Source: Campylobacteraceae bacterium | GTDB taxonomy: Bacteria > Campylobacterota > Campylobacteria > Campylobacterales > Sulfurovaceae | DNA: 64,000 nt | Assembly (NCBI GenBank): GCA_027065045.1 | Contig: JAMOOX010000087.1 | Coordinates: forward strand, 30,912-94,911 | Direction: 5' to 3' | Part shown: positions 7,293-46,998 of the stretch, piece after piece | Layout: each line of letters opens with the position of its first letter | Numbering within the stretch: the stretch's first letter is position 1 | Notes under the pieces: generated by a model | What the model was told of the DNA's origin: nothing | Databases searched by the model: none | What the model saw: only the letters and a program-made list of their open reading frames with translations | Translations under genes and position numbers: made by a program

Positions 7293-7304
7293 GAGCTTAA
7301 ATTT

Positions 7305-10144: not shown

Positions 10145-10410
10145 GAGGAGAGAATAAGTTACCTCACAGCAATTTATTTTCTCACTATAGTCATTATAAT
10201 AATTAGAGTAGCACATAGAAAAGAAATTTATTAAGCTTAAAAGCGAACAAGGTAATACTTACAATTATTCAAGCTTTTAATTTGCATAAAGTAAAATTAA
10301 AAGAATATAATAAAACAAGAAAAAATTAATTATTATAAATATAAATCATAATTTTAGTTAAAATTAAACAATATTAGTTTATACTTTAACTATAAAGTAA
10401 AGGATTAATA

Positions 10411-10644: not shown

Positions 10645-10817
10645 TAAACTACTTGATACAGATGTAATTATTTGGTATCTAAGAGGTAATCAAAATGCTT
10701 ATGACCTTATTCATAATATTGGTGAGTTTGCTATATTATGGTATGACACTTTATACAGCTAATGATAAACATTATAAAGTGATTAAAGAGTTAGATATTT
10801 TTGTATTTAGACCATAA
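10641..10817 (+). pseudogene. PIN-domain VapC toxin remnant (frameshifted, internally deleted)
   Basis: ATG at 10641 reads MINYLIQM*. The +2 frame reads DKLLDTDVIIWYLRGNQNAYDLIHNIGEFAIL (PIN N-terminus). A third frame reads YTANDKHYKVIKELDIFVFRP* (PIN C-terminus). The middle of the domain is missing. Confidence 0.55.
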
Positions 10818-10830
10818 AGAAAGGAACAGT

Positions 10831-28020: not shown

Positions 28021-28563
28021 TCACCTTTGTTTTGTCGTATTAAAGATACCTATTTCTCTATTTTTATATACATTATTTGAATTAAATATTTTACCATTCA
28101 TAGCAATATATACACCATTATCAAGATAATCTACTGCACCAATAGCAGTACCAAAATTAAATAATCCATCAGAGTGATTTATACTATATGGTATCATAGC
28201 ACCTATTAGTATTATTACTTTATTTATGTTATAAGATGATATATATTTAGCACTCTCTACCATTGTATCTGTGCCATGAGTGATGATTATATGTTTAGTT
28301 GTAGATATTTTGATAGCTTTTAGAATATCTTCTCTATCTTGAAGAGTTATATCTAAGGAGTCTTTTAGAAAAAGTGTTGTGGTTTGTATATCTCTATCTA
28401 CTCTTGATTGAGTTAATATTTGTGGGATATATGAAGTTTGGTTGAAATCTACTTCACCTGTAAGCATATTATATTTTTTATCAATAGTACCACCAGTGAT
28501 AATAATATTAATTGGATTATTCGTGGGCGAAGATGCCCACAAGTTTTTACAATCTTGATTCAT
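28021..28563 (-). CDS. short asparaginase-family protein
   Basis: [12 protein letters not shown] and IITHGTDTM, the asparaginase/glutaminase N-domain threonine motifs. The ATG at 28563 is preferred, because the track's longer start runs through rpsU. Confidence 0.65.
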
Positions 28564-28759
28564 ATCTTCTAAGCATAAATAGCTTTTTGAGGATTTTCTT
28601 ACGAGTTGCAATTTTCTCTTTTTTCTTCTTTTCAGTAGCAGTTTCATAGTATTGTCTAGCTCTTGCTTCTGTTACAATTAAGTTTCTATCACATTGTCTT
28701 TTGAATTTTCTATAAGCATCATCAAAAGAATCTCTTGAATTTAGTACAATTCCTGGCAT
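28547..28759 (-). CDS. rpsU: 30S ribosomal protein S21
   Basis: [26 protein letters not shown]...RRYESRL is typical bS21. Confidence 0.92.
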
Positions 28760-28953
28760 AAAAGTCACCCCCTCTCTAATCTAAATTTTCTATATATTTA
28801 TAGAAATAATTAATAAGATAGAATTATATCTAAAAAATATTTTGTTATGCTTATTTAGGTAATAGAAATTTTATCTAATTGAGCATCTATATTTCATTAG
28901 GTTATAACTAAGTTTTAGATAAAATATATGTAATAATAATGCTTGGAGAAAAT

Positions 28954-31900
28954 ATGGCTGAATATGGTGCTAGTAATATTAAAGTCCTTAAGGGATTAGA
29001 GGCAGTTAGAAAACGCCCAGGAATGTATATTGGTGATACTGCTTCAAAAGGTCTTCATCATCTAATATATGAAGTTGTAGATAACTCTATCGATGAGGCT
29101 ATGGCAGGATTTTGTGATACTATTAAGGTTACACTTACCAAAGATGGTACTGCTATTATAGAAGATAATGGTAGAGGTATCCCTGTAGCAGAGCATCCAA
29201 CAGAGAAGATTTCCGCAGCGACTGTGGTTTTGACTGTGCTTCATGCTGGAGGGAAGTTTGATAAAGATACTTATAAAGTATCTGGTGGGCTTCATGGTGT
29301 GGGTGTATCTGTTGTAAATGCACTTAGTGCAGATTTACATTTAGAGGTTTTTAAAGATGGGTATAGTTATACTCAAAGCTTCAAAGAGGGTATTCCTCAA
29401 GAGGATTTAATTCAAGGTGATAAGAGTAGAAAACATGGTACAAAGATAGAATTTTTACCTGATGAGACTATTTTTAAAGAGGGAATTATATTTGATTATA
29501 ATATTCTTGCTAAAAGATTTAAAGAGTTAGCATATCTAAATCCTAAAATTACCATTAAATTTAAAGATGAAAGAAGTAATAAAAGTGAGGTATATCACTT
29601 TGAGGGAGGACTTAAAGAGTTTGTAGATGATTTAAATAAGAATGAACCAATATCTTCTACACAATTTTTTCAAGGTAAGTCTGATGATATAGAGATAGAT
29701 ATTGCTATTATGTACTCTAATAGTGATAGTGATAGAGTAGTATCATTTGTAAATAATATCAAAACTGCCGATGGTGGTACTCATGAAGCAGGATTTAGAG
29801 CAGGGACTACAAGAAGTATATCTCAATATATATCCAAAAATGCCAATGCCAAAGAGAAAGGTACTAAGATTACAGGAGATGATACCAAAGAGGGATTAGT
29901 GGCTGTTGTATCTGTAAGAGTACCTGAACCACAATTTGAGGGGCAAACTAAAGGTAAGTTAGGTTCTAGTTATGTTAAACCATTAGTTCAAAAGTTTATA
30001 TATGAACAGTTTAATAAGTTTCTTGAAGAGACTCCATTAGAGGCAAAAGCTATTATGGCTCATACAATCTTAGCAGCCAAAGGTAGAGATGCAGCTAAAA
30101 GAGCCAAAGATTTAGTCAAACGAAAAGACTCTATGAGTATAGGCACACTTCCTGGGAAATTAGCAGATTGTCAAAGCAAAGACCCTGCTTTATCTGAAAT
30201 TTACCTTGTGGAAGGGGATAGTGCTGGTGGGTGTTTTACTGGTGATACTCAAATATCTTTAGCAGATGGAAGAGATTTATCATTTTTAGATTTAATAGAA
30301 GAGTATAAAGAGGGTAAAGAGAATTTTTGTTACACAATTAAAGATGATGGTTCTATTGGAATAGAAAAAATACTACACCCTAGAAAAACAAAATCAAATA
30401 CTACTCTTGTTGAAGTAACATTAGATAATGGGAAAAAGATTAGATGTACTCCTGAACATAAATTTATGATAAGAGATGGAGAGTATATTGAAGCTCAAAA
30501 TTTAGAGAATGGGCAGAGTTTAATGCCACTTTATAAAAAATTATCTAAAATTGAGAATAGAGTTACTATTGATGGTTATGAGATGGTTTTAAATCCTAAA
30601 AATTCTAAATGGATATTTACTCATATGTTATCTAATAATTGGAATTTAGAAAAAGGTATTTATGATAAGATTGAAAAAGCACATAAACACCATATAGATT
30701 TTAATAAATTAAATAATAATCCAACTAATTTAATTTTATTATCTGCTGATGCACATTTAAAATTACATCAAAAACATATATCTAAAACTTTACATACAAA
30801 AGAGGCGAAAGAGAAAGCAAAAAAGGCTCATCAAACAATAGAATATAAATTAAACGCTAGTAAAATTTCAAAAAAATATTCAAAAATATTATCTCAAAAA
30901 GCCAAAAAACAGTGGGAAGATGAGAATTATAAAGAGTATATGAAAAATAAATATTTAGAATTTTATCAGACAAATGCTCAATATAGAGAGAACCTTTTAA
31001 ATAGATTAGATAATGCTCAAAGAGAGTATTGGTCTAAAGAAGAGAATAGAGTAAAGCAATCTAAAAAAACTACTGATTATTATATAAGTAATCCAAAAGC
31101 TAGAGAGATTTTATCTCAAAAAGCTAAGGAGCAGTGGAGTAGTGAAGAGTTAAGAGAGTGGAGAGCTAAAAAAACTAAAGAGCAAATGTCTAATCCTGAT
31201 AATCTTAAGAGGAAGTTAGCCACAGAGAAAAAAACTAGAATAAAAAATAGTTTAGAACTTTTAAATAGAGTTGGTATAGATAATTATGAAGAGTATAGAA
31301 AAAATGATAGAAGAGTTTTTAAAATAGATACACTTATTTCTAAAATTAATGAGAGTGAAAATAATTTTAATTTCTTAAGTAATCAAGATTTAATTTCTAG
31401 TGATTTATATACATATAATCATAAAGTTATATCTGTTCAAAAATTATCTATAAAAGAGGATGTTTATGATATAGAAGTCCCAAATACACATAATTTCGCT
31501 TTGTCCTCTGGAGTATTTGTCCATAATTCTGCCAAACAAGGAAGAGATAGAGTATTCCAAGCTATTCTACCTCTAAAAGGTAAGATTTTAAATGTAGAAA
31601 AAGCACGATTAGAAAAAATCTTAAAATCTGATGAGATTAAAAATATGATTACTGCCCTTGGTTGTGGTATAGGTGATGAGTTTAATGAAGAGAAGCTTCG
31701 TTATCATAAAGTTATTATTATGACTGATGCTGATGTTGATGGTAGTCATATTCAGACACTTCTTATGACATTCTTTTTTAGATTTCTTAAGCCTATTATT
31801 GAAAAAGGTTATTTATATCTTGCTCAACCTCCTCTTTATCGTTATAAAAAGGGTAAAAATGAGACATATCTCAAAGATGATAGAGAGTTAAATGAGTTTT

Positions 31901-32568
31901 TGATAGAACATGGTATAACTATAATAGAGAGTGATACAATGGGGGATAATGATTTAATTGATTTATTTAAATTGGTATCTTATTATAAAAGTACGCTAAA
32001 TGAGATAGAGAGACGATACTCTATGCCTGAAGTTTTGAAATATTTAATAGAAAATTCTAATATATTTAATGAAGATACATTTATTGAAAAAACTTTAGAT
32101 ATAGAGGAGTATATCAATTCTCTTGGATTTAATATTTTAAATAGAGAGAGTAGTGAGAATAAAATTCATCTTTTTGTTCAGACTAATGATGGATTAGAGG
32201 AGTTACTTATTGATAAAGAGCTATTTAATGACCCTCATTTTGAAGAGGCTATATCTTTGTATCATAAGATAGATGGTAGGATTACCCAAGAGTTCAAAGA
32301 TAAAGATATGTTGAAACTTCTTACAAAAGTAGAGAGTTATGCCAAAAAAGGTGCATATATCCAAAGATATAAAGGGCTTGGAGAGATGAACCCAGAACAG
32401 CTTTGGGAGACTACAATGACACCAGAAAATAGAGTGCTTCTAAAAGTTGTAATTGATGATGACCAAGAAGCTAGTGATACATTCTCTCTATTTATGGGAG
32501 ATGAGGTAGAACCACGAAGGAACTATATTGAATCTCATGCAAAAGATGTTAAACATTTGGATGTTTAA
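28954..32568 (+). CDS. gyrB: DNA gyrase subunit B, interrupted by an in-frame intein
   Basis: MAEYGASNIKVLKGLEAVRKRPGMYIGD start, with GHKL ATPase and TOPRIM motifs. The exteins total about 772 aa and join as EGDSAGG|SAKQGRD. Confidence 0.95.
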   Translation: MAEYGASNIKVLKGLEAVRKRPGMYIGDTASKGLHHLIYEVVDNSIDEAMAGFCDTIKVTLTKDGTAIIEDNGRGIPVAEHPTEKISAATVVLTVLHAGGKFDKDTYKVSGGLHGVGVSVVNALSADLHLEVFKDGYSYTQSFKEGIPQEDLIQGDKSRKHGTKIEFLPDETIFKEGIIFDYNILAKRFKELAYLNPKITIKFKDERSNKSEVYHFEGGLKEFVDDLNKNEPISSTQFFQGKSDDIEIDIAIMYSNSDSDRVVSFVNNIKTADGGTHEAGFRAGTTRSISQYISKNANAKEKGTKITGDDTKEGLVAVVSVRVPEPQFEGQTKGKLGSSYVKPLVQKFIYEQFNKFLEETPLEAKAIMAHTILAAKGRDAAKRAKDLVKRKDSMSIGTLPGKLADCQSKDPALSEIYLVEGDSAGGCFTGDTQISLADGRDLSFLDLIEEYKEGKENFCYTIKDDGSIGIEKILHPRKTKSNTTLVEVTLDNGKKIRCTPEHKFMIRDGEYIEAQNLENGQSLMPLYKKLSKIENRVTIDGYEMVLNPKNSKWIFTHMLSNNWNLEKGIYDKIEKAHKHHIDFNKLNNNPTNLILLSADAHLKLHQKHISKTLHTKEAKEKAKKAHQTIEYKLNASKISKKYSKILSQKAKKQWEDENYKEYMKNKYLEFYQTNAQYRENLLNRLDNAQREYWSKEENRVKQSKKTTDYYISNPKAREILSQKAKEQWSSEELREWRAKKTKEQMSNPDNLKRKLATEKKTRIKNSLELLNRVGIDNYEEYRKNDRRVFKIDTLISKINESENNFNFLSNQDLISSDLYTYNHKVISVQKLSIKEDVYDIEVPNTHNFALSSGVFVHNSAKQGRDRVFQAILPLKGKILNVEKARLEKILKSDEIKNMITALGCGIGDEFNEEKLRYHKVIIMTDADVDGSHIQTLLMTFFFRFLKPIIEKGYLYLAQPPLYRYKKGKNETYLKDDRELNEFLIEHGITIIESDTMGDNDLIDLFKLVSYYKSTLNEIERRYSMPEVLKYLIENSNIFNEDTFIEKTLDIEEYINSLGFNILNRESSENKIHLFVQTNDGLEELLIDKELFNDPHFEEAISLYHKIDGRITQEFKDKDMLKLLTKVESYAKKGAYIQRYKGLGEMNPEQLWETTMTPENRVLLKVVIDDDQEASDTFSLFMGDEVEPRRNYIESHAKDVKHLDV
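30232..31527 (+). mobile_element. GyrB intein (432 aa) with HNH-type endonuclease core
   Basis: Block A is CFTGDTQISLADG (Cys1 codon at 30232) and block B is RCTPEHKF. Blocks F/G are VYDIEVPNTHNFALSSGVFVHN followed by +1 Ser (Asn codon at 31525-31527). The central HNH-like motif is HKHHIDFNKLNNNPTNLILLSADAHLKLH. Confidence 0.85.
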
Positions 32569-33980
32569 TGCTTTTATCTACACTATTAGAACGAGAGAGG
32601 CGATTTAAAATCGCACTAAGAGCAGGTATTCCTGCTTTGGTATTTATTTTTGTAATTTTGTATATTTTATTTGTTCAAGATACAAATATTGTTGTATCTA
32701 TTAAAGATAGTTTAGTTGTAGCAGGTATTGTATTTACTACCATATATTTTATATATTTTATGATAGAACTTGCTACTAAAGGTACTCTACTTGATAAAGA
32801 GACAGATGGATTTAATCAAAATGCTTTTATAGATATAGTCAAACATAAAAAACCCAAAACCATAGCACTTTTAGTGATTAAAAATTTAGACTCTATAGGA
32901 GAGAATTATGGATATAAAAATTTAAATATTACTCTAAATGATATTATAGATTCTCTTGATATATTTTTGGCTCAATATGGAGTAAAAAATATTATTATAG
33001 GGCGATATAGCAGGTCAAAATTTATATTAGCACTTGATAAGGATACCAAAGATATAGAAGAGATTTTGCATAAATTTACCAAAAACTATAACTCTATCAA
33101 AAATATAGAGATAGATTATATATTTTCTGTAATTGCAAATAATCATAAAGAGAGTGTTACTAAAATGATTAATCTAATAGATATTGATGCTAGTAGCAAA
33201 AAGAAAAAGCAGATTATTGTCAAAGATAGCAAAAAAGAGATAGAACTAGAAGATGCTATCAAAGATGCCCTTGATACTCAATCTCTAGCATTTACATTTA
33301 GACCACTGCTTAATAGTTCTACTGATAAAATTGATATTTATACTATCTCTATCAAAATGATTTTAAGAGACCAAAAAGAGCTACTACCACGAGTATATCT
33401 TCCTGTGATTAATCGTTTGGGATTGGGGCAAATTTATGATTTAGCCGTTGTAAAACAGGTTGCTCATACGGCATCATTAATTGATGATAGTATATCTTTG
33501 AGCTTTAATTTATCTCCATTTTCTATTAGAGATAGAGGTTTTTTGAGAAATGCTTTAAATATTATTAAAGCAGATGATATATCTCCTAATCGTATGATTA
33601 TAGAGATATATGAGAAAAATACTCACCATAATATGAGTAATTATCTTAAAATATTGGATAATATTAGAAATAAAGGTATTAGAATTTCAATAGATAATTT
33701 TGGTTCATCAAACTCATCATTTGATTATATAAAATATTTTAAATTTGATATGGTTCAATTTGATAGAGATTTTACTAAAAATATTGATGATAAGAATTCT
33801 CTTGCTATGTTTAATTCACTACTAAAGATGTGTAAAGAGTTAAATATTACAACAATAGCAAAATGGGTAGATGATGATACTCAAAAAGAGAAACTTAAAA
33901 AATTAAATGTAGATTATATGCAAGGTTTTGGTATTAAAAAACCAATTAGTAGAAGAGAACTTATAATGAAATATAGTTAG
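32568..33980 (+). CDS. membrane protein with GGDEF-like and degenerate EAL domains
   Basis: 2 TM helices. The EAL-domain landmarks are recognisable but altered: SIK in place of EAL, DNFG in place of DDFG, QFD in place of KxD. The ATG overlaps the gyrB stop (TAATG). Confidence 0.7.
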   Translation: MLLSTLLERERRFKIALRAGIPALVFIFVILYILFVQDTNIVVSIKDSLVVAGIVFTTIYFIYFMIELATKGTLLDKETDGFNQNAFIDIVKHKKPKTIALLVIKNLDSIGENYGYKNLNITLNDIIDSLDIFLAQYGVKNIIIGRYSRSKFILALDKDTKDIEEILHKFTKNYNSIKNIEIDYIFSVIANNHKESVTKMINLIDIDASSKKKKQIIVKDSKKEIELEDAIKDALDTQSLAFTFRPLLNSSTDKIDIYTISIKMILRDQKELLPRVYLPVINRLGLGQIYDLAVVKQVAHTASLIDDSISLSFNLSPFSIRDRGFLRNALNIIKADDISPNRMIIEIYEKNTHHNMSNYLKILDNIRNKGIRISIDNFGSSNSSFDYIKYFKFDMVQFDRDFTKNIDDKNSLAMFNSLLKMCKELNITTIAKWVDDDTQKEKLKKLNVDYMQGFGIKKPISRRELIMKYS

Positions 33981-33987
33981 ATAATAT

Positions 33988-34533
33988 ATGATAAGATTAG
34001 GTTCAAACTCTCCGACTAGAGCAAAAATATTAAGAGATAACTCTATTGAGTTTATTCAAAATGGTGGAAGTTTTGATGAGGATTTAATTACTACAACTAA
34101 TCCAAAAGAGTTTGTAGTAGAGGCAACAAAGGGTAAATATAGTGAATTATTTGCAAAATATGGTTGTGAGGATATGCCTCTTCTTGTATCAGATACAGTT
34201 GTAACCTGTGATAATAGACTCTTGCGAAAAGCTAAAAATAGGCAAGATGCAAGAGAGATGTTAGAACTTCAAAGTAATAATTATACAACTATTATAACTT
34301 GTATGATATTCAAATCTCTAAATAGCTATATATTTGATATATCTTATACCACATATAAATTTAAAGAGTTTAATATAGATGATTTAAATAAATATATAGA
34401 GAGTGGAGAGTGTATGGGAAAAGCAGGTGCTATAATGGTAGAGGGATTTTGTAAGCCTTATATAGAGAGTGTAGATGGATATGAATCTACTGCTATGGGG
34501 CTTTCTATAGAGAAACTGCTACCATTTTTGTAA
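33988..34533 (+). CDS. maf: Maf-like nucleoside triphosphate pyrophosphatase
   Basis: IRLGSNSPTRAKIL N-terminus, size and the C-terminal GKAGAIMVEG-like motif. Confidence 0.75.
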   Translation: MIRLGSNSPTRAKILRDNSIEFIQNGGSFDEDLITTTNPKEFVVEATKGKYSELFAKYGCEDMPLLVSDTVVTCDNRLLRKAKNRQDAREMLELQSNNYTTIITCMIFKSLNSYIFDISYTTYKFKEFNIDDLNKYIESGECMGKAGAIMVEGFCKPYIESVDGYESTAMGLSIEKLLPFL

Positions 34534-34599
34534 TATATACTTATAATTTACGCTTTTAACCCTTAATATGTTAAAATTTCATAATTTAAAAAAAGGATT

Positions 34600-35790
34600 A
34601 TGATTTTGGAAAATTTATCTGATGTTTCTTATGTATTAAATACATTTTTTACACTTTTTTCTATGGTATTAATTATATTTATGGTACCTGGATTTGCTAT
34701 GCTTGAAGCTGGATTAGTAAGAAGTAAAAATGTAACATCAGTACTTACTGCAAATACCATGATTTATGCTATTGCATCTTTAGCATTTTTACTTGTTGGT
34801 TACTCTTTGGCTTTTGGTAGTTGGGAAAATGACTCTATGAGTAAATGGGCTGCATTTCTATTTCAGATGGCATTTGTAGGTAAGATTATTAATATTATGA
34901 GTGGTGGTGTGAGTGAGAGAATTAAAATCTTGCCTTTGGCTCTTTTTGCAATAATTATGTCTGCTATTATATACCCTATGGTTGTAAATGTATCTTGGGG
35001 TGCAGATATGATTAGTGGTACATTTTTGGATTTAGATTTTTATGATTTGGCTGGTTCTACTGTAATTCACTCTACGGGTGGTTGGGCATTACTAGCTGCT
35101 ATTATGATAATGGGTGCTAGAAAAGGAAGATACCGTAAAAATGGTAAAATCCAACCAATACCTGCTTCAAATATTCCATTAGTTACTCTTGGTGCATTTT
35201 TATTATGGATTGGTTGGTTTGGATTTAATGGTGGTAGTGTAGGAAGTATCGCTTCAAAAGAGAGTGCAGATGCAGTAGCATTAACTATTATGAATACCAA
35301 TACGGCAGGATTAGCAGGTGCTCTAGTGGCATTTGTTGTTATGTATATTAAATATCGTAAATTTGATATTACAATGATGCTTAATGGTGCATTAGGTGGT
35401 CTTGTAGCAATTACTGCTGGACCTGATTTATATAATATATATCTACCTATTTTAATTGGTGGTATTGGTGGTGGATTAGTGATATTAGCCGTGCCATTTT
35501 TTGATAAATTAAAATTTGATGACCCAGTGGGTGCTTTATCAGTTCATCTTGTAAATGGTATATGGGGTACACTTGCTGTTGGTATCTTTGCTAGTAGTGA
35601 TGAAATATCTCTAATGGGACAAATAAAAGCAATTATTGTAGTAGCTATATTTGTATTTACTACATCTTATATTGTATTATATCTTATTAATAAGATATTA
35701 CCACTAAGAGTTGAAGAAGAGGATGAGTATAAAGGTCTTGATTTGTCTGAATGTGGAATGGAGAGTTATCCAGAGTTTGTAAAATCTTAA
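34600..35790 (+). CDS. amt: ammonium transporter
   Basis: About 11 TM helices with Amt signatures (GFAMLEAGLVRSKN, DLAGSTVIHSTGGW, WFGFNGGS). Confidence 0.93.
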   Translation: MILENLSDVSYVLNTFFTLFSMVLIIFMVPGFAMLEAGLVRSKNVTSVLTANTMIYAIASLAFLLVGYSLAFGSWENDSMSKWAAFLFQMAFVGKIINIMSGGVSERIKILPLALFAIIMSAIIYPMVVNVSWGADMISGTFLDLDFYDLAGSTVIHSTGGWALLAAIMIMGARKGRYRKNGKIQPIPASNIPLVTLGAFLLWIGWFGFNGGSVGSIASKESADAVALTIMNTNTAGLAGALVAFVVMYIKYRKFDITMMLNGALGGLVAITAGPDLYNIYLPILIGGIGGGLVILAVPFFDKLKFDDPVGALSVHLVNGIWGTLAVGIFASSDEISLMGQIKAIIVVAIFVFTTSYIVLYLINKILPLRVEEEDEYKGLDLSECGMESYPEFVKS

Positions 35791-35793
35791 TAA

Positions 35794-36147
<354 letters not shown>

Positions 36148-36152
36148 AGTAT

Positions 36153-36176
36153 AAATAGGGATTCTTCTCCCTATTT
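36153..36176 (+). terminator. possible hairpin terminator after the P-II gene
   Basis: AAATAGGGA-ttcttc-TCCCTATTT, a 9-bp stem 5 nt after the stop codon. There is no long U-tract beyond the stem. Confidence 0.4.
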
Positions 36177-36417
36177 AAGAGTTCATTAATTATCTTATTC
36201 CAAAATTATTATTTTCAATATATTTTCATTAAACTTTAGATAAGATTTCTAATAAATTCAAATTTTAAAGTTAGTCTGAAAGATATATCATTAATTGGTG
36301 ATGATGATTTAGTTAATATAGACTCTTTTAAAAAACACCTACAGCCGATTTCAAGATAGTAATAAATTAAGAGTGTAGTAAACCAAAAAATAATGATAAA
36401 TTAGTACAGCTTATGGA

Positions 36418-36600
36418 GTGTTTACCCGATGGTGGGACACCACATCATCTTCAAGATGTATTCACCCAAAAGCACCACGACCATTAACAACAAGAGAGGG
36501 TGCAAGAATACAATGTTTTCCAGATAATTATATATTTTATGGTTCAAGAAGTTCAAAAAATTTACAAATAGGTAATGCTGTACTACATTTTTATCAATAG
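36418..36600 (+). pseudogene. C-terminal relic of a C5 DNA cytosine methyltransferase
   Basis: [41 protein letters not shown] matches the motif IX-X region (RxLTxRExARxQxFPDxxxF...QIGNAV). The catalytic N-terminal motifs (PC, ENV) are absent, and upstream frames are broken by stops. Confidence 0.7.
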
Positions 36601-36735
36601 CTTTAAAAAACTCAATCAAACAATATTTAATATCTTTATAAAACAAATGCTTAATAAATATAATTATAAAATAATTTTTATTCCTATTTCATATAAATTA
36701 GGTACAATATTTACATTAAAATATTAGGAGCTTTA

Positions 36736-37650
36736 ATGAGAATATCAAAAATTATAACAACTACAATTATGCTTTTTACTCTTTCGTATTCAACTCACTC
36801 TTTTAAAAACTACTCGGATATATGTGAAAATAGTGATGAAAATAGCTGTTTAAATAACTCTGATGAGGTTCGTAATCTTCAACTTGCTTTAAACTCTGAT
36901 AAACATCTTAATCTCAACCTTAAACCTGATGGTAGATGGGGAGATAATACCAAAAATGCTGTAGAGAAGTTTCAAGAATTATATAATATCACACCTATCA
37001 AGGGATATGTAGGTGCAAAAACTAAAAAAAAATTAGATATGCTTTATAGTAATCTAAAACTTCCTAAAATTACTCATAAAACATCTTCTAAAAAAGTATC
37101 TAGTAGTCTATGTTATGCTGATTTTAAACGAACTACAAATCTAAGAAAAAGCTATAAAGTATTCAAAGACAGAAGACTTTTAAGTCAAGCAAATGGTAGA
37201 AATACAAAGCTAAAAGTAGATATATCTCAACAGAGAATAAATCTATATGTAAATGGTAAGGTAGCACTCTCTTCTCCTTGTACAACAGGGGCTAAACGAA
37301 AGCTAGAACCAAATACAAGAATAATTAGAGACCAACGGACACCAAAAGGTACATTTAAAATCAAAGAGAAAATTGCTGATAAGCGTTCAAGTATCTTTGG
37401 TAAATATTATATTAATGGTAGAATGGTTTATAAAGGTGATAGAAGAAAATATAGAGGTCCAAAAGCCAAATATGTAGGTGCATCTCTAAAGCATTGGATG
37501 AGATTAACAAATGGTGGTATTGGTCTTCATGCTAGTAAATATGTAAAAAGATACCCTGGGACAAATGGGTGTATTAGACTACCTCATAAAGTGGCAAAAG
37601 TTCTATTTTCAAAAGTAACTACAGGTACGCAAGTGAGTATTGTTAATTAA
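36736..37650 (+). CDS. L,D-transpeptidase (YkuD) with N-terminal peptidoglycan-binding domain
   Basis: Signal peptide, then a PG_binding_1-like VRNLQLALN...DGRWGDNTKNAVEKFQ, then a YkuD active-site block GIGLHAS...GTNGCIRLPH. Confidence 0.85.
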   Translation: MRISKIITTTIMLFTLSYSTHSFKNYSDICENSDENSCLNNSDEVRNLQLALNSDKHLNLNLKPDGRWGDNTKNAVEKFQELYNITPIKGYVGAKTKKKLDMLYSNLKLPKITHKTSSKKVSSSLCYADFKRTTNLRKSYKVFKDRRLLSQANGRNTKLKVDISQQRINLYVNGKVALSSPCTTGAKRKLEPNTRIIRDQRTPKGTFKIKEKIADKRSSIFGKYYINGRMVYKGDRRKYRGPKAKYVGASLKHWMRLTNGGIGLHASKYVKRYPGTNGCIRLPHKVAKVLFSKVTTGTQVSIVN

Positions 37651-37661
37651 GCAAATTATAT

Positions 37662-37688
37662 AAAAGGTTTGGTTTTAACAAACCTTTT
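37662..37688 (+). terminator. rho-independent terminator candidate
   Basis: AAAAGGTTTG-gttttaa-CAAACCTTTT, a 10-bp stem followed by T/A-rich sequence, 12 nt after the L,D-transpeptidase stop. Confidence 0.6.
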
Positions 37689-37864
37689 ATATTAAATTAA
37701 TATTACCTATGTTATAATTTCTCCATACAAATAAAATATAGATACAAATCTTTCTTAACAATTCCAAATAATTTATTAAAATTTAAATTTTGCCTATTTT
37801 ATTGGGTATTCTCTTAATTTTTATAAATTTTTCACACATTACATATAAAATCAAGGACATTAAA

Positions 37865-40405
37865 ATGGACAGCAATATGATGAATACAATACATTTAAAT
37901 ATTAAAAATATATTACCTAAAATACTTACACCTATTATAACAAGTACAAATCAAAATACTTTTGTAGGTAGAAGTAAAGAGGTTGAGATAATTGATAAGT
38001 TCTTTGGTATTAGTAATGCCTTAGTCTTAGTTAGTTCACTTTCTGGTGTGGGTAAAAGCTCACTAGCTTCTCACTATTTAGAACTTCATAGAGAGGAGTT
38101 TGATTATTATGGTTATGTCAAAATTAATGATAGTTTTCGTCAAAGTTTCACATCATCATTTAAAATTTCACTAGGATTAGAACAGGGTAGATTAGATGAC
38201 CTATTTATTGAAGCTATTACAAAACTTAGTTATTTAGAGGGAAAAAAATTTCTTATTATAGATAATTCACAAGGTATAGAACTTCCATCTAATAAGATTA
38301 ATTTAGTTTTAAATCTAATCAACAAAGATTTCAAAATCTTATTTATATCAAATTCTAAAATTAAAGATATTAGAGATTATGAGATAGGTACATTGAGTAT
38401 TGATGATGCTTCTGCTCTTTTTATCAACTATTGTCCTACAAATGAGATAGAGAAAGTCAAGAAGATAGTCTCATATTGTGGTTATCATACATTTTTTCTA
38501 AAGCTTCTTGCAAAAAGAATTAGGAGTAATGAATATAATCTTGATGATATTATTGCAAAATTTGAAAACAAAGAGTTAATTTCACTACAAGATGGTGATA
38601 TTAATATGATTATAAATAGTAATATCCAAAAACTACTATTTATGCAACAATTAGATATTGAGTATATGACTCTATTAAAACGACTATCAGCACTACCTTC
38701 TATTGAAATAAAAGCTAATTTTATAAAAGAGTTACTAAAAGAAGAAGTAGAAGAGAAGTTAAATTCATTAGTATCTTGGGGGTGGATAAGTAAAAGAGGT
38801 GATAGCTATAAGTTACATCATATATTAAAAAACTATATATTAAACTATAATCATGCAACATTTAATGATATAGCCTCTATCGTAGAGTATTTTAATATGC
38901 TAATTAGCGATAGTCATTCAGCAGAAGCAGTAATAAATGCAAAGAAAAATCTTCTCTATCTAAAATCTCTTAAGATTATTTTACAAACATTTGATATTCA
39001 ACATAGTACAATTTCAACCTTTTATGAGAACTTAGGTAATATATATTATCATCTAGGTGAGTATGATAAAGCTCTTGAAATTTCACATAAATCTCTTAAA
39101 CTTTTGATAAAGGCAAATGGTGAAGATAGTATAAAAGTAGCTCAAAATTATAATGATTTAGGATTGGTTTATAAATCTAAAAAAGATTATGGAAGAGCCT
39201 TATCTCTTCTTAAAAAAGCACTTCTTATCCGTATCAAACTATTAGGCAATACCCATATTAATACAGCTAGAAGTTATAATAATGTAGGATTAGTTTATAG
39301 ATTAAGTGGTAATTATGATGAAGCATTGAAGTATTTTAATAAAGGATTAGTGATAAATGAGTCTATTTTAGGAAAATACTCTATCAATATATCATATATT
39401 TATAATAACATAGCCCTTACTTATCAAGAAATTTTAGATTATAAAAAGGCTCAACTGTTTTTTCAAAAAGCAATCAAAATAAGAGAAAAACATTTAGGCA
39501 AAAATCATTTAGATACAGCTATGGCATATAGTAATCTAGCAATTCTTTATAGAGATATTAAAAAATACTCAAGAGCATTATCACTACTAAAAAAATCAAT
39601 AGAGATTTATACAACAATATTAGGTGAGACTCATCAAAGGAGTATATCTAATTATAATAAAATGGCACTAATTTATCAAGATATGAATAGTGAGCAGTTA
39701 GCTATGGATTATATCAAAAAGGTTCTCAAAATCAAGCTAACTACTCTAGGAGAGTATCACCCTAAAACTGCACTTGCTTATAATAATCTAGGATTGATGT
39801 ATCTTTCAAAAAATGATTATAGTGGGGCTAGACAACTATTTAAAAAAGCTTTTTCAATTCTTAAAAATATTTTAGGAGAGTCTAATTTAGATACAGCACT
39901 TGTAAGATATAACTTAGCCATTACTCACTTTTTAATGAAAGATTATCAATATGCTAGACCAATATTTACAAAAGCATTAGATACATATGAAGAAATTTTG
40001 GGAATATCACATCCTAAAACAATTAGAATTAAAAATTCACTAGCAGTAGTTTATGCACAGCTTTTAAGAGATGATAAAGCAATGGAGATATATTATGAGA
40101 GTATTGTTATATCACAAGATAGAGATTTAAATACAGCACTTAGCTACCATAATATAGCAACTCTACTATTTAATAAAGAGGAGTATCAAGAGTCTTATGA
40201 GAATATGCTAGAGTGCGTAGAGATTAGAAGCAAACTATTAAGTAAAAAAGATTCATCTCTAATAAATGCCAAAAATAAACTTACAATTATGAAAGATATA
40301 TTAAATAAACTTCAAAATAGTAGAAAAATAGATGATTTTTTGAAATTTAAATTAGACTTTTTTGTAAGTGATAAAACCTTAGATAATTTACTTGTGATGA
40401 GATAA
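37865..40405 (+). CDS. P-loop NTPase (NB-ARC/STAND-like) fused to a long TPR array, paralogue 1
   Basis: FVGRSKEVEIIDKF, then Walker A LSGVGKSS and Walker B KFLIIDNS. About 10 kinesin-light-chain-type TPR_12 repeats follow (A..YNNLGLVY...Y..AL..L.KAL.I....LG..H..TA). The ATG at 37865 with an AAGGA RBS is preferred over the TTG at 37790. Confidence 0.8.
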   Translation: MDSNMMNTIHLNIKNILPKILTPIITSTNQNTFVGRSKEVEIIDKFFGISNALVLVSSLSGVGKSSLASHYLELHREEFDYYGYVKINDSFRQSFTSSFKISLGLEQGRLDDLFIEAITKLSYLEGKKFLIIDNSQGIELPSNKINLVLNLINKDFKILFISNSKIKDIRDYEIGTLSIDDASALFINYCPTNEIEKVKKIVSYCGYHTFFLKLLAKRIRSNEYNLDDIIAKFENKELISLQDGDINMIINSNIQKLLFMQQLDIEYMTLLKRLSALPSIEIKANFIKELLKEEVEEKLNSLVSWGWISKRGDSYKLHHILKNYILNYNHATFNDIASIVEYFNMLISDSHSAEAVINAKKNLLYLKSLKIILQTFDIQHSTISTFYENLGNIYYHLGEYDKALEISHKSLKLLIKANGEDSIKVAQNYNDLGLVYKSKKDYGRALSLLKKALLIRIKLLGNTHINTARSYNNVGLVYRLSGNYDEALKYFNKGLVINESILGKYSINISYIYNNIALTYQEILDYKKAQLFFQKAIKIREKHLGKNHLDTAMAYSNLAILYRDIKKYSRALSLLKKSIEIYTTILGETHQRSISNYNKMALIYQDMNSEQLAMDYIKKVLKIKLTTLGEYHPKTALAYNNLGLMYLSKNDYSGARQLFKKAFSILKNILGESNLDTALVRYNLAITHFLMKDYQYARPIFTKALDTYEEILGISHPKTIRIKNSLAVVYAQLLRDDKAMEIYYESIVISQDRDLNTALSYHNIATLLFNKEEYQESYENMLECVEIRSKLLSKKDSSLINAKNKLTIMKDILNKLQNSRKIDDFLKFKLDFFVSDKTLDNLLVMR

Positions 40406-40444
40406 GATTATATTCAATTAATATTATTTGTGATATAATATATA

Positions 40445-42976
40445 ATGTTTAAGAAAAACCATATATGTTTGATGCCAAAAAAAACATTTAAAGTACTTAC
40501 TCCTATTGTAACACATATAAATAAAAATACTTTTGTAGGTAGAGCTAAAGAGGTAGATATAATTGATAAATTTTTTACTATTAGTAATGCTTTGGTACTT
40601 ACAAGTGATATTGGTGGTGTTGGTAGGAGTAGCTTAGCTTCTCACTATTTAGATATTAATATAAATAAATTTGATTATTATGGTTATATTAAAATTAATG
40701 ATAGTTTTCGTCAAAGTTTTACATCATCATTTAAAGAGTCATTATCACTAGAACAAAATAGTTTAAATGACCTATTTATTGAAGCTATTACAAAACTTGG
40801 AAATTTAAATGGTAATAAATTTCTTATTATAGATAACTCCAAAGGTATAGAAGTATCTAAACATAAACTAAATCTAATTTTAAATCTAATTAATAAAAAT
40901 TTTAAAATACTTTTTATATCTAATAAAAAAATCAAAGATATTAGAGATTATGAGATAGGTGCATTGAGTGTTGATGATGCTCTACAACTATTTATCAACT
41001 ATTGTCCTACATCCCAAAAAAAGAGTGTAGAGAAAATAGTAGAATATTGTGGTTATCATACATTCTTTATTAAATTATTAGCAAAAAGAGTTTATAGTAG
41101 TGGATATAACTTAGATAAAATTATAGATATGTTTAATTCCAAGCAGTTAATGCCTTTGAAAAAAGGAAATATTATGCTTCTTATTAATATCAATATTCAA
41201 AAACTATTTTTTATGCAAAAATTAGATAGAGAGTGTATATCTCTTCTTAAGAAATTATCAGCCCTACCATCTATTGAGATTAGTTCAGATTTTATATCTA
41301 TACTACTCAAAGATAAGCTTAGAGATAAATTAGAAGCTTTGGCATTTTTTGGGTGGATTAGTAAGCAAGGTAATGGTTATAAACTCCATCACATAGTAAA
41401 AAATCATATATTAAATTATAATCATGCTACATTTAATGATATAACATATATAGTTGAGTATTTTAATCATTTAATCAAGGATAGTTATTCCAAAGAGGCT
41501 TTAATAAATGCTAAAAAAAATCTTTTATATTTTAAATCACTAAATAGTATTTTACAAAGATTTGATATTCAGCATGATAAAATATCAACATTTTATCAAA
41601 ACTTAGCTAGTATATATCATCAATTAGGAGAAGATAATAAAGCTATTGAAATTTTAAATAAATCACTTGTTAATAATAAACACTCTCTTAAAGGAGCTAA
41701 AAATTATAATAATTTAGGTCTAATATATAAATCATCAAAAGAGTATAAAAATGCACTATATTGGCTCAATAAATCACTTAATATTAGAATAGATATATTG
41801 GGTGAATTTAATATTGAAACAGCTAGAAGTTATAATAATGTAGGATTGATATATAGATTAATTGGTAACTATGAAAAGGCTTTTATATATTTTAATAAAT
41901 CTCTAAATATCAAAGATAAACTTTTAGATAAGTATGATATTGAAAGGTCATATCTATATCATAATATGGCACTTACTTATCAACAAATATTAGATTATAA
42001 AAAAGCTCAATTCTATTTCCAAAAAGTTATTAAAATTAGAGAAAAATATTTAGGTAAAAATAGCTTAGAGACTGCAATGGGATATAGTAATCTAGCACTT
42101 TTATATAGAGATATAAATAAACACTCAATGGCACTATCTTTACTAAAAAAATCTATCAAAATTTATAAAAATAATTTGGGAGAAGAGCATCAAAAGAGTG
42201 TATATAACTACAATTATATTGCACAAATATATAAAGATATAAATAGTGATGATTTAGCGATGCATTATATTAAAAAAGTTCTTAAGATTGATTTAACTCA
42301 TCTAGGAGAGTATCATCCTAAAACTGCTCTTGCATATAATAATTTAGGATTATTATATCTTTCAAAAAATAATTATACTCAATCAAAAGCATTTTTTGTT
42401 AAATCTATATCAATACTTAAAAATATATTAGGAGAAGAGCATTTAGATTGTGCCATAATAAGTGTAAATTTAGCTATTAGCAAATATTTTATAAAAGATT
42501 ATATAGATAGCAAAAGAATTTTAATCAAAGCATTAAATACCTATGAAAATATCTTAGGAATATTACATCCCAAAACACTCTCCCTTCAAAATCTTTTAGC
42601 TTTACTATTTGCTAAATTAAATAGATATGATAAAGCATTAGATATCTACCATCAAAGTATTAATCATTCAAAATCTGTTATAAAAGATGGAGATTTAAAT
42701 ACAGCACTTAGCTATCATAATATTTCTATTATATTTTTACATATAAAAGAGTATGAAAAAGCCTTAATTAATATGCAAAAATGTGTAGATATAAGATTAA
42801 GACTACTACCAAGAAAAGATAAATATTTATTAAACACCATAGATAAAATGATTATAATAAAAAATCTTTTATACAAAGAAAAAAAATGTAGAGAAGTCGA
42901 TGATTTTATAGAGTTAGATTTTGATATATTTACAAGTGATAAACATTTAGATAACCTTTTTATGATGAGGGAGTAA
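40445..42976 (+). CDS. P-loop NTPase (NB-ARC/STAND-like) + TPR array, paralogue 2 (Walker A Lys replaced by Arg)
   Basis: Collinear with paralogue 1 along its whole length and roughly two-thirds identical by eye. Walker A reads IGGVGRSS (AGG codon at 40625-40627). Walker B is KFLIIDNS. Confidence 0.8.
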   Translation: MFKKNHICLMPKKTFKVLTPIVTHINKNTFVGRAKEVDIIDKFFTISNALVLTSDIGGVGRSSLASHYLDININKFDYYGYIKINDSFRQSFTSSFKESLSLEQNSLNDLFIEAITKLGNLNGNKFLIIDNSKGIEVSKHKLNLILNLINKNFKILFISNKKIKDIRDYEIGALSVDDALQLFINYCPTSQKKSVEKIVEYCGYHTFFIKLLAKRVYSSGYNLDKIIDMFNSKQLMPLKKGNIMLLININIQKLFFMQKLDRECISLLKKLSALPSIEISSDFISILLKDKLRDKLEALAFFGWISKQGNGYKLHHIVKNHILNYNHATFNDITYIVEYFNHLIKDSYSKEALINAKKNLLYFKSLNSILQRFDIQHDKISTFYQNLASIYHQLGEDNKAIEILNKSLVNNKHSLKGAKNYNNLGLIYKSSKEYKNALYWLNKSLNIRIDILGEFNIETARSYNNVGLIYRLIGNYEKAFIYFNKSLNIKDKLLDKYDIERSYLYHNMALTYQQILDYKKAQFYFQKVIKIREKYLGKNSLETAMGYSNLALLYRDINKHSMALSLLKKSIKIYKNNLGEEHQKSVYNYNYIAQIYKDINSDDLAMHYIKKVLKIDLTHLGEYHPKTALAYNNLGLLYLSKNNYTQSKAFFVKSISILKNILGEEHLDCAIISVNLAISKYFIKDYIDSKRILIKALNTYENILGILHPKTLSLQNLLALLFAKLNRYDKALDIYHQSINHSKSVIKDGDLNTALSYHNISIIFLHIKEYEKALINMQKCVDIRLRLLPRKDKYLLNTIDKMIIIKNLLYKEKKCREVDDFIELDFDIFTSDKHLDNLFMMRE

Positions 42977-43033: not shown

Positions 43034-43390
43034 CTAAACTCTAACCTGCTTTAAAGCACTCTCAACCAAAAATGTACTACGGTTAATATTATGACTTTTA
43101 GCATAACTATCAATTTTTTCAAGAGCATAGATAGGTACTGTTATATTAATTCTCTTTGTTTTCATTAGATGAGATGGCTCTTTTATCTCTTCACCATTTT
43201 CCAAAGCAACCTCTAAATAACAAGAAAATGCTGATTTAACATCATTTATTGCCTCTTCTATAGTCTCTCCATCACCCATAACACCTTTAAAATCTTTATA
43301 ATAAGCAAAATATCCACCACCATCTTGTGAAGTTATTTTTCGTATTATTATCTCATAGTCTAAGTTTAGATAGTAATTTATTGTTTTCAT
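43034..43390 (-). CDS. hicB: HicB-family antitoxin with C-terminal ribbon-helix-helix domain
   Basis: The N-terminal HicB fold-like segment reads YEIIIRKITSQDGGGYFAYYKDFKGVMGDGETIEEAINDVKSA. The C-terminal RHH/CopG-like segment reads KRINITVPIYALEKIDSYAKSHNINRSTFLVESA. The ATG at 43390 with an AAGGAA RBS is preferred. Confidence 0.75.
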   Translation of the reverse strand: MKTINYYLNLDYEIIIRKITSQDGGGYFAYYKDFKGVMGDGETIEEAINDVKSAFSCYLEVALENGEEIKEPSHLMKTKRINITVPIYALEKIDSYAKSHNINRSTFLVESALKQVRV

Positions 43391-43418
43391 ATTAAGTTCC
43401 TTATATATCATAATAATA

Positions 43419-43436: not shown

Positions 43437-43527
43437 CATATATATCTTTAAAAATATTAAATTTCAATCTAAACCTAATAAAAATAATAATATAATCTAT
43501 TTTGAAACTATACTCAAGGATTTTATA

Positions 43528-43761
43528 ATGAGTAAAAAAGAAAAATTATTAAATGCTATAAAAAATAACCCTAAAAATGTAAGATTTGAAGATTTAAAAA
43601 AAGTTTTGGAAGATATAGGATATAAAGGAATTAATCGTGGTGGTAGTCATTATATTTTTACAAAAAACAATAATATATCATTAACTATTCCATATAAAAA
43701 ACCTGTAAAAATAATTTATGTAAAACAAGTTATCAAAATAATTGAAGAGGAGAGAATTTAA
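43528..43761 (+). CDS. hicA: HicA-family (YcfA-like) mRNA interferase toxin
   Basis: 77 aa. FEDLKKVLEDIGYKGINRGGSHYIFTK... fits the HicA dsRBD-like fold with the conserved G-S-H. Confidence 0.75.
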   Translation: MSKKEKLLNAIKNNPKNVRFEDLKKVLEDIGYKGINRGGSHYIFTKNNNISLTIPYKKPVKIIYVKQVIKIIEEERI

Positions 43762-46119: not shown

Positions 46120-46998
46120 CTATCTATATACTCTTAGAACTCTATCTATCATCAATTTTTGAGTTTTACTATCTCCATCTTGTGTCTCTATGTTAATATA
46201 TTTTGTACTATTTTTATTTAATACTACAAAATTAGACATAGAACAATCATTACGATTTGGATTGATTAGTTCATATTTGATATTAAGTCCTAGATTATTA
46301 AATCTTTTGACTTTATTATAATCTACCCCTTTTTTAGAGGCTAGATATATTAAGCTATCTTCATCTTTGAGACCTCTTTTATTACCTCTTAGAATATCAT
46401 TAGCTTTAAAACATTTTGTACTATTACTACAATGAAGCATAGATACACCTCCCCCACCTCCACTATCTCTATGCCCATTAGCATTACTATGAAGAGCTAG
46501 ATATGGCATATTTGGAGTTTTGAAATAATCTATAATTTTAAATATAGTATTACTATATAGTGGTGCTTTATATTTTTGACCTCTACATACTCTAGTAGTT
46601 TTTCTATCTACTCCAAAGTTGCGATTTGGGTCTTGATTTTTAAAGTATCTACTACCATTTGCTAATACAGATAAAAATCCTCCACCATATTTATTAGCTG
46701 AATATATAGCACTATCAAAAGCACTATTTTCATTATCATGAGGGAGATACCAAAATGCACCTTTTGGAGTATTTTCATTCCATACCAAAAGAAATCTCCA
46801 ATTATATATATGCTCTTTTAGTAACACTTCTTTGATACATAGAGAGGATAAATTATATCTATTTCGTTTTAAATCACTATATCTATTTATATCTGTAACC
46901 TCAATTGAGTGAATAGATGATAATTGTGATGGAAGAGGACAGTTCTTTGCATTTATTGATGTTAATAATATTAAAAATAATCCAATAACTCGTTTCAT
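46120..46998 (-). CDS. secreted hypothetical protein, possible M14-like zinc hydrolase
   Basis: Signal peptide, then an ordered H-D-N-E (HxxE), DPNRNF and LALHSNANGH, which resembles the M14 zinc-carboxypeptidase ligand pattern. A GGGGG loop is also present. The family assignment is tentative. Confidence 0.4.
   Translation of the reverse strand: MKRVIGLFLILLTSINAKNCPLPSQLSSIHSIEVTDINRYSDLKRNRYNLSSLCIKEVLLKEHIYNWRFLLVWNENTPKGAFWYLPHDNENSAFDSAIYSANKYGGGFLSVLANGSRYFKNQDPNRNFGVDRKTTRVCRGQKYKAPLYSNTIFKIIDYFKTPNMPYLALHSNANGHRDSGGGGGVSMLHCSNSTKCFKANDILRGNKRGLKDEDSLIYLASKKGVDYNKVKRFNNLGLNIKYELINPNRNDCSMSNFVVLNKNSTKYINIETQDGDSKTQKLMIDRVLRVYR

Follow-up and report, generated by a model that had tools for sequence, protein, structure and literature searches.

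Prokaryotic NOD-like receptor (NLR)-like proteins are viewed either as single proteins in which sensor, switch and effector are fused or as close pairs of genes that signal through amyloids. The locus described here raises the question of what such a receptor can do when only the sensor and the switch are kept. It lies in a stretch of 64,000 nucleotides from a Campylobacteraceae bacterium (GenBank assembly GCA_027065045.1, contig JAMOOX010000087.1, positions 30,912 to 94,911 of the forward strand; 'the window' below, numbered from its first letter) and consists of two adjacent paralogous genes, A and B, which encode tandemly duplicated cytoplasmic NLR-like receptors of the STAND (signal transduction ATPases with numerous domains) class, each with its own copy of a predicted promoter. 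They represent a conserved NLR branch under purifying selection, with a remodelled nucleotide site and two unequal copies, and are, in this vent-type Campylobacterota genome, stripped-down relatives of the plant and animal NLR immune receptors, a modest departure from a receptor family already known. Our tentative preference is to read A and B as a pair of ligand-sensing NLR switches with output through protein partners. An annotation made earlier from the letters of the window (the original prediction) had seen in them effector-less STAND proteins of a small defence or accessory islet, with the effector either supplied in trans, possibly by a neighbouring L,D-transpeptidase or HicA, or formed by the short C-tail.

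Fold and architecture of the tandem pair

Both reading frames lie on the + strand, separated by 39 bp (40406-40444). Their products are identical at 530 of 832 aligned residues (64%, with 80% positives; BLASTP, E=0) and collinear from residue 19 of A and residue 16 of B through the C-terminus; at the DNA level the genes are 70-80% identical. By sequence comparison this similarity is far above chance level. The start of A was placed at the ATG at 37865 because of an AAGGA Shine-Dalgarno sequence 8 nt upstream, agreement with the N-termini of homologues and conservation in L090, a locus that carries an orthologue of A; an in-frame TTG start at 37790 (871 aa, hydrophobic N-terminus) was set aside. 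Each protein comprises an N-terminal peptide, a nucleotide-binding domain (NBD), a helical domain (HD1) and a winged-helix domain (WHD), an array of tetratricopeptide repeats (TPRs) and a C-terminal tail:

37865..40405, + strand: STAND/NLR-like paralogue A, 846 aa from ATG; N-terminal peptide, NBD-HD1-WHD, about ten TPRs, C-tail
37955..38389, + strand: nucleotide-binding domain of A, residues ~31-175; P-loop SLSGVGKS, Walker B LIIDN
38390..38854, + strand: HD1 and WHD of A, residues ~176-330; from AlphaFold2 (AF2) secondary structure with pLDDT >85
39005..40264, + strand: TPR array of A, kinesin-light-chain type, residues ~381-800
40319..40402, + strand: acidic/aromatic C-tail of A, SRKIDDFLKFKLDFFVSDKTLDNLLVMR
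40445..42976, + strand: STAND/NLR-like paralogue B, 843 aa, architecture as in A
42887-42973, + strand: C-tail of B

The FVGR-x-KE element reads FVGRSKEV in A and FVGRAKEV in B, and the P-loop segment reads SSLSGVGKSS in A and SDIGGVGRSS in B. Ahead of the P-loop stand 57 residues in A and 54 in B, with no domain match, and no export signal can be read from either sequence. The C-terminal halves are built of about ten 42-residue TPRs (for A, Pfam TPR_12 at 1e-83 and TPR_10 at 2e-71), with an internal identity of roughly 30%, and among PDB sequences the TPR half of A matches the kinesin light chains KLC1/KLC2 at E~1e-24. Both proteins end in a conserved tail, IDDFLKFKLDFFVSDKTLDNLLVMR in A and VDDFIELDFDIFTSDKHLDNLFMMRE in B. 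The original prediction had described the main features: two collinear frames of about 845 aa, about two-thirds identical and 39 bp apart, the FVGR-x-KE element, some ten TPR_12 repeats, a common C-terminal tail and no effector domain. Its P-loop holds for A (GVGKS) and has to be amended for B, where GVGRS has Arg in place of the Walker-A Lys.

For the N-halves, Pfam gave only sub-threshold matches to AAA_22/AAA_16 and no direct match of NB-ARC (PF00931) to A or B; a single-sequence search of PDB sequences gave no significant match, and an AF2 model of the N-half from a single sequence (pLDDT 38) was of no use. A family alignment of 18 NTPase modules served both for profile search and for AF2. 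Against PDB sequences this profile matched Apaf-1 (1.2e-6), Roq1 (1.7e-6) and NRC4 (7.5e-6), as well as NRC1-3, MLA13 and Sr35 and, weakly, CED-4 and AfsR (AfsR E 0.13), and it aligned onto HD1-WHD residues 296-467 of Apaf-1; PF00931 matched 13 of the 18 modules, at best with 5.5e-11. The AF2 model of the N-half of A made with the 18-sequence alignment reached a pLDDT of 86.4 and a pTM of 0.78. Its best Foldseek match was again Apaf-1 (E 5.7e-12, TMq 0.66), and further matches were CED-4, the archaeal STAND-TPR protein 6mfv (TMq 0.60), NRC2/3, ZAR1, Roq1, RPP1, MalT (8bob; E 1.5e-8, TMq 0.64) and Avs3/4/5 (TMq 0.27-0.38). Family profile, Pfam matches of the modules and predicted structure together identify the N-half as an NB-ARC-type NBD-HD1-WHD module; by predicted fold A and B thus belong to the NB-ARC STAND clade, and the family profile points the same way, as the original prediction had supposed when it described an NB-ARC-type N-half followed by a winged-helix-like middle.

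Set beside Apaf-1, CED-4 and the plant NLRs, which are their best profile and structure matches, A and B share the NBD-HD1-WHD fold and an MHD-like His, their family has a P-loop of the GxGGxGK[ST] type, and the model of A is predicted in a closed, ADP-like conformation. Unlike these proteins they have no CARD, CC or TIR domain, carry a TPR sensor instead of WD40 or LRR repeats, have a D-N Walker B (the norm in their family) and no sensor-I Arg, and are missed by the Pfam NB-ARC model when searched directly. The antiviral Avs (AVAST) proteins likewise join a STAND NTPase to a C-terminal TPR-like sensor with a plausible role in conflict; A and B differ from them in having no N-terminal nuclease, protease or SIR2 domain and no match to an Avs model, and in the low TMq given above. 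The effector-free combination of STAND and TPRs recalls the logic of MalT, AfsR and the archaeal PH0952-type protein (6mfv). A and B nevertheless contain no LuxR or SARP DNA-binding domain detectable with Pfam or NCBIfam and have no conserved linked regulator gene: none is present in the window or in L090, and an OmpR-type gene lies beside one of the two nearest homologues (P0002) and not beside the other (P0001). A and B match AfsR and TPR_MalT in their TPR region only, far below the cut-offs, and the sequence relation to AfsR, at the E value given for the profile, is marginal.

Effectors of the wider family and their absence from the A/B branch

Relatives of the NTPase module were collected by an exhaustive profile search with hidden Markov models (HMMs) of both N-halves against 1.84 billion representative proteins, which yielded 1569 relatives, including 78 below 1e-30. 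A word-index search had returned nothing with the N-half of A and only two proteins with the family alignment; the index evidently misses this AT-rich family, and the exhaustive search was required. No relative turned up when GTDB was scanned with two peptide patterns from the N-domain, a weak negative. Among the matches listed, the P-loop could be located in 139 relatives, 76 with an N-terminal extension and 63 without. Sampled extensions contained HetE-N, SMEK_N, Cap4_nuclease or a caspase (Peptidase_C14) with HATPase_c_4, and the 63 short N-termini, again among the matches listed, place 25-60 residues before the NTPase and fall into recurring G/N/D/H-rich classes.

The short N-termini acquire meaning from gene neighbourhoods, which we compared across 52 related metagenome loci. 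The gene upstream of a short-N-terminus NLR ends in the NLR's own N-terminal motif, and these motif-partner genes usually overlap the NLR gene or end within 12 bp of it. In the L109 pair the partner C-terminus ...TININGDVNGIGTVTGGTVTQTLHF faces the NLR N-terminus EINGDIYGVGVVKGGTVNQNLILP, and in the L107 pair QTHSGSGDNVVGDKIVHN faces QTHSGSGDNIGRDKHVHI. The match exceeded all 200 shuffles for L109, L107 and L095 and equalled the best shuffle for L102; a motif HMM built from NLR N-termini of one class only scored the partner C-termini of L095 at 25.6 bits and of L089 at 17.8 bits. Upstream partners carried SLFN_AlbA_2, SMEK_N, CHAT, Trypsin_2 or HetE-N domains. The arrangement was seen at L089, L095, L098, L102, L107, L109/L110, L112, L118, L119, L127, L131, L133 and L139, and in one protein (P0004) HetE-N, motif and NB-ARC are fused. 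Such pairs of NLR and effector with a shared terminal motif correspond to the bacterial amyloid signalling sequences (BASS) of Dyrka et al. 2020 (bioRxiv 10.1101/2020.01.06.895854), whose survey placed these NLRs chiefly among multicellular Actinobacteria and Cyanobacteria, with only rare cases in Proteobacteria, and the BASS architecture of E. coli Bab/Agp mediates abortive infection (bioRxiv 10.1101/2024.11.07.622273).

On the strength of its fused or motif-paired effectors and its BASS architecture, the family to which the sequences of A and B point is one of conflict-type NLRs, in which supplying the effector in trans is an actual and frequent arrangement. The defence-type kinship proposed in the original prediction is thereby supported, since the relatives of A and B are conflict-type NLRs with attack effectors; its effector in trans is frequent in the family and finds no motif-matched partner in the window. 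This collateral result is perhaps the weightier one: BASS-type NLRs and effectors form a rich family with many members in the Campylobacterota-like contigs of vent-type metagenomes. Several of the related contigs bear the accession prefix AAUQ01, probably that of the Alvinella pompejana epibiont metagenome. The BASS-like architecture of these relatives appears, from their domain matches, to involve unusually diverse effectors, and partners of the Schlafen-AlbA_2, SMEK, CHAT, trypsin-like and HetE-N types would take amyloid-type NLR signalling well past the filamentous bacteria from which it was originally known.

One further locus of the family, L132, has an intact m5C methyltransferase of 421 aa (555-1820) 56 bp upstream of a family member (1876 onward) with an N-terminal extension like that of P0005, suspected to be restriction-endonuclease-like and with no Pfam match; L132 may be a methylase-protected nuclease-NLR unit. 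A methylase stub in the window resembles the L132 enzyme only in the conserved C-terminal motif. The idea that this stub is the relic of an L132-like unit was dropped, as only a universal C-terminal motif is similar and the L,D-transpeptidase gene and a synteny break intervene.

The nearest homologues of A and B are P0001 (855 aa, 50% identical to A over its full length) and P0002 (858 aa, 40%). With A and B they form a small branch with neither a fused effector nor a partner gene. None of the four has an N-terminal domain or a same-strand upstream partner. Upstream of A and of P0001/P0002 stand a signal-peptide L,D-transpeptidase, a CopD-like gene on the opposite strand, and AMMECR1, about 250 bp away. 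No motif-matched open reading frame was found around P0001 or P0002, and in the 64-kb window no open reading frame has a C-terminus that matches the N-terminus of A or B above shuffled controls. An acidic/aromatic C-tail is common to A and B and partly to P0001/P0002; a regular expression for its core motifs found nothing comparable in the other 148 relatives among the matches listed.

These data bear on the possibility that A and B are ordinary BASS-type NLRs with an unlinked effector partner, the N-terminal DSNMMNTIHLNIKNILP of A being a weak copy of the 'DSFNNIxNSxVxV' motif. The motif HMM does give A 4.4 bits, equalled by only 18 of 500 shuffles (p~0.04), L090 preserves 93% of the N-terminal peptide, and relatives of the same motif class have partners (L089, L095). 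Yet the score is marginal and partly due to the linker PKxLT, none of B, P0001 and P0002 scores at all, the window contains no partner, and each positive case has its partner encoded directly upstream; we regard this explanation as improbable. Like the BASS NLRs, A and B join NB-ARC and TPRs behind a short N-terminal peptide, and their relatives, with NTPase modules 30-43% identical, show effector/NLR pairs with a common terminal motif. Unlike them, A and B have no credible motif or partner gene, stand as a tandem NLR-NLR pair, have no sensor-I Arg (and, in B, a Walker-A Arg), and reside in a Campylobacterota-type genome, outside the Actinobacteria and Cyanobacteria that dominate the 2020 survey. 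A and B thus fit no standard Avs system (no effector, no model), no BASS pair (no motif, no partner) and no MalT/AfsR regulator (no DNA-binding domain).

The nucleotide site, selection and two unequal copies

The second departure of the branch concerns the ATPase site, for which the following positions matter:

38054-38056, + strand: Walker-A Lys64 of A
38351-38353, + strand: sensor-I position of A, Asn163
38816-38818, + strand: MHD-like His318 of A (YKLHH)
40625-40627, + strand: Walker-A position of B, Arg61, codon AGG
40922-40924, + strand: sensor-I position of B, Asn160
41387-41389, + strand: MHD-like His of B

Gly residues of the P-loop are replaced in the A/B branch. The Walker A of A, S-LSGV-GKS, has Ser for the first Gly and keeps the Lys; that of B, D-IGGV-GRS, has lost the Lys, which is present in 144 of 144 relatives, so that B alone among about 146 proteins has Arg, two nucleotide changes away (AGG against AAA in A). 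The sensor-I Arg (TSR), found in 140 of 148 relatives, has given way to Asn (ISN) in both A and B; P0001 has Lys here and P0002 has Gln. A and B both retain the MHD-like His (YKLHH), as do 134 of 140 relatives. Walker B reads LIID-N in A and B; its Asp is invariant (147/147 relatives), and a view of the D-N as degenerate was rejected, Asn being the majority state at the second position (82 relatives, against 58 with Asp). The orthologue of A in L090 carries the same non-canonical motifs.

That orthologue shares 84% of nucleotides and 85.5% of amino acids with A over 676 codons, at dN 0.078 and dS 0.72 (dN/dS 0.11, NG86). The NBD, with a dN/dS of 0.033 and 95% amino acid identity, is the most constrained segment of A; HD1-WHD stands at 0.11 and the TPRs at 0.13. 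The low ratios and the conservation of the odd motifs indicate genes maintained by selection and not decaying. Effector loss, altered catalytic residues, low GC and the nearby methylase stub could suggest functionless remnants of effector-bearing NLR genes; with both frames intact at about 845 codons, these ratios and the non-canonical motifs preserved in L090, we consider decay very improbable.

The two copies have diverged unequally. Between A and B, dN/dS is about 0.29, and with P0001 or P0002 as outgroup the TPR half of B has accumulated 58 lineage-specific changes against 28 in A (p=0.001), while the N-halves are equal; B thus has about twice as many such changes as A, and the excess lies wholly in the TPR half. 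In the N-half A is 88% identical to the L090 protein and 70% to B, which dates the duplication to before the two organisms diverged.

This asymmetry invites comparison with the plant sensor/helper NLRs. The RRS1/RPS4 and RGA5/RGA4 pairs and the NRC network likewise offer adjacent paralogues, one with a non-canonical P-loop and a faster-evolving sensor, though the likeness is one of analogy. In a bacterial counterpart, B, locked by its Walker-A Arg and equipped with a fast TPR sensor, would activate A, or both copies would signal through effector-bearing paralogues elsewhere, the proteins hetero-oligomerising with each other or with those paralogues and dividing recognition from execution. The Arg unique to B, its rapid TPR half and truncated N-terminus, the age of the duplication relative to the L090 lineage and the many effector-bearing paralogues in the same metagenomes would all suit such a network. 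Against it, the two nearest homologues are single-copy, so that pairing is not needed in the branch, and A, having no effector, is no conventional helper; moreover, A and B differ from the plant pairs in being tandem and not head-to-head, with no integrated decoy and no executioner domain in either. We hold this explanation to be distinctly unlikely. The original prediction had also raised tandem pairing as a possible trait of the family; no other locus that we examined has two copies.

Our preferred reading, a pair of ligand-sensing switches with output through protein partners, would run as follows. In the large family from which A and B descend the output is a suicide or attack module, fused N-terminally or encoded upstream and coupled by a BASS-like motif; the A/B branch has lost the fused effector as well as the partner gene and has remodelled its ATPase site. 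The KLC-type TPR solenoid would bind a peptide or protein ligand, which would release the closed NB-ARC state and drive self- or hetero-association. The NB-ARC module probably still binds nucleotide and may be poor at sensing or hydrolysing the gamma-phosphate, with B as the faster-evolving, hydrolysis-impaired, sensor-like copy. With no enzymatic domain of their own, A and B would pass the signal by protein contact, to each other or to an unlinked partner, and the likely arena would be conflict with phages or mobile elements. KLC TPR grooves bind short acidic-aromatic peptides, to which the tail of A and B is similar in character, and we infer that the tail might serve, in cis or in trans, as a pseudo-ligand of the TPR groove. 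Any signalling by the pair would have to proceed without parts thought necessary, and would imply either that NLRs cooperate with one another in bacteria or that an immune receptor has been taken over for a different task; a natural NB-ARC with Lys-to-Arg and without sensor I offers a chance to ask what the nucleotide switch is for.

Several observations weigh against this reading. With sensor-I Arg lost and Lys changed to Arg, classical nucleotide-driven oligomerisation could perhaps no longer work. The TPR dN/dS of 0.13 shows no overall non-synonymous excess, and the repeats, with their low internal identity, are unlike the near-identical, fast-shuffling repeats of some NLRs. No effector gene adjoins the pair, and no tie to phages or plasmids is seen: phage collections held no homologue and plasmid collections two remote matches. 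A comparison with defence-system models, which the original prediction had proposed as a check, gave it no support: in PADLOC, A and B matched only the generic TPR model PDLC01169 and the 18 family modules nothing meaningful, so that no known defence-system model matches A, B or the family module. Finally, P0001 and P0002 are single-copy genes, each in another unrelated neighbourhood; P0002 is followed after 79 bp by an OmpR-type response regulator and then a 7TMR-DISM histidine kinase, and P0001 adjoins PAS-domain proteins, neighbours that fit a signalling role as well as one in defence.

The same observations lend some weight to a domesticated, non-immune STAND scaffold or regulator of MalT/AfsR-like logic, which would respond to an endogenous ligand and modulate an unlinked or neighbouring signalling protein with no cell death. 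MalT is among the best structural matches (AfsR being weak in the profile search), the regulator, kinase and PAS-domain genes follow P0002 and P0001, the NBD is tightly constrained, the TPRs bear no sign of diversifying selection, and effector and motif are lost. On the other side, neither A nor B nor the adjacent genes of the window encode a DNA-binding or output domain, no neighbour is common to A/B, L090, P0001 and P0002, death or attack effectors occur in each branch of the family that has been characterised, and distribution is patchy and location variable. We judge such a regulator unlikely and keep the pair of ligand-sensing switches as our tentative choice.

Neighbourhood, predicted promoters and the proposed trans effectors

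All flanking genes named in the original prediction were found:

34600-35790: amt
35806-36147: P-II (glnB)
36418-36600: C-terminal stub of an m5C methyltransferase, 60 codons; residues ~363-405 of a ~421-aa enzyme are left
36736-37650: L,D-transpeptidase (Ldt), YkuD and PG_binding_1
37658..37692, no strand assigned: palindromic terminator-like hairpin after the Ldt gene; left boundary of the STAND unit, not part of it
43034-43411, - strand: HicB, 125 aa, HicB_lk_antitox and an RHH-like tail
43528-43761, + strand: HicA, 77 aa
43791-45968, - strand: monomeric icd

Whether Ldt or HicA acts as the effector in trans can largely be answered in the negative: only physical proximity speaks for it, and we leave it hardly any probability. 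L,D-transpeptidases act on peptidoglycan outside the cytoplasm, and the N-terminus of Ldt is signal-peptide-like (MRISKIITTTIMLFTLSYS), whereas the STAND proteins have no export signal. The 214-bp spacer between Ldt and A holds the terminator-like hairpin, after which A has a separate, conserved predicted promoter, and Ldt is absent from the corresponding junction in L090. The motif HMM gives the C-termini of Ldt and HicA 0.7 and -0.8 bits, no match. HicB (-) and HicA (+) diverge from a 116-bp spacer, with HicB convergent with B; hicAB usually forms a co-oriented operon, and of the HicAB pair named in the original prediction both genes are present and the operon is not. The survey of homologue neighbourhoods that it had suggested found no L,D-transpeptidase, HicA or HicB beside P0001, P0002 or in any of the 52 loci, and none of these 52 has two NTPase modules. 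HicA also has the lowest GC of the region (0.20).

The idea that the pair sits in an accessory islet draws weak support from low GC (0.26 and 0.23, where the window has 0.29), from HicA/HicB and the methylase stub, and from homologues that lie at different places in other genomes. Set against it are the core genes that flank the pair, gyrB, maf, amt and glnB on one side and icd, miaA, ftsZ and ftsA on the other. Comparison with L090 locates one boundary. Window 28037-28841 (an asparaginase-like gene and rpsU) corresponds to L090 1230-2035, and homology resumes at the promoter of A, just after the Ldt hairpin, with window 37697-39898 corresponding to L090 2063-4266; in L090 the promoter of A directly follows rpsU, and the 8.85-kb block gyrB-EAL-maf-amt-glnB-stub-Ldt (28842-37696) does not lie between them. 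To the left of the asparaginase-like gene the window and L090 differ as well (tRNA-Ser versus bioA). Of the 80 Campylobacterota icd loci (<=91% identical) that a GTDB scan with icd returned, none has the gene order that surrounds icd in the window. Neither direct repeats flanking the pair nor att-like sites were found. A 34-nt inverted repeat (36205-36238 / 43458-43491, 76% complementary) spans from after glnB to the HicB/HicA spacer and is probably due to chance in AT-rich DNA.

Upstream of both A and B lies a 32-nt direct repeat, in copies 84% identical that hold an extended -10, TGnTATAAT:

37687..37718, + strand: promoter-bearing repeat copy 1, extended -10 TGTTATAAT at about 37712-37720, conserved in L090
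37719..37864, + strand: 5' leader of A, 146 nt, with the AAGGA Shine-Dalgarno sequence 8 nt before the ATG
40408..40439, + strand: promoter-bearing repeat copy 2, TGATATAAT, ending 5 nt before the ATG of B

Both repeats are predicted promoters, by consensus alone, and their presence before each gene indicates that the duplicated unit took in the promoter. There is no terminator-like site between A and B. B has no Shine-Dalgarno sequence and its ATG follows repeat copy 2 by 5 nt, a spacing from which it is probably translated from a leaderless mRNA; about 150 nt present in A (leader and first codons) are missing from B. The leader of A is about 88% identical to that of L090 apart from one 15-nt indel. 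An RNA element in this conserved leader was considered and dropped, with no Rfam match and no significant fold (z = -0.6). In the first 30 codons of A, dS to L090 is 0.22, a small sample, against 0.7-0.85 in other parts of the gene, and this low synonymous divergence near the start may reflect constraint at the nucleotide level.

Other features of the window touch the pair less directly. GC is as low as in the STAND pair at 7001-9000 and 10001-11000 (0.22-0.25). An 843-aa open reading frame at 2961-5492 is unrelated, being no paralogue of A or B, and a 292-aa frame between icd and miaA (46120-46998, - strand) has no Pfam or NCBIfam match. The gyrB gene (28939-32568, + strand) encodes 1209 aa owing to an intein at about 30256-31527, which Pfam Intein_splicing matches at residues 440-863, directly before the Toprim match at 864-959.

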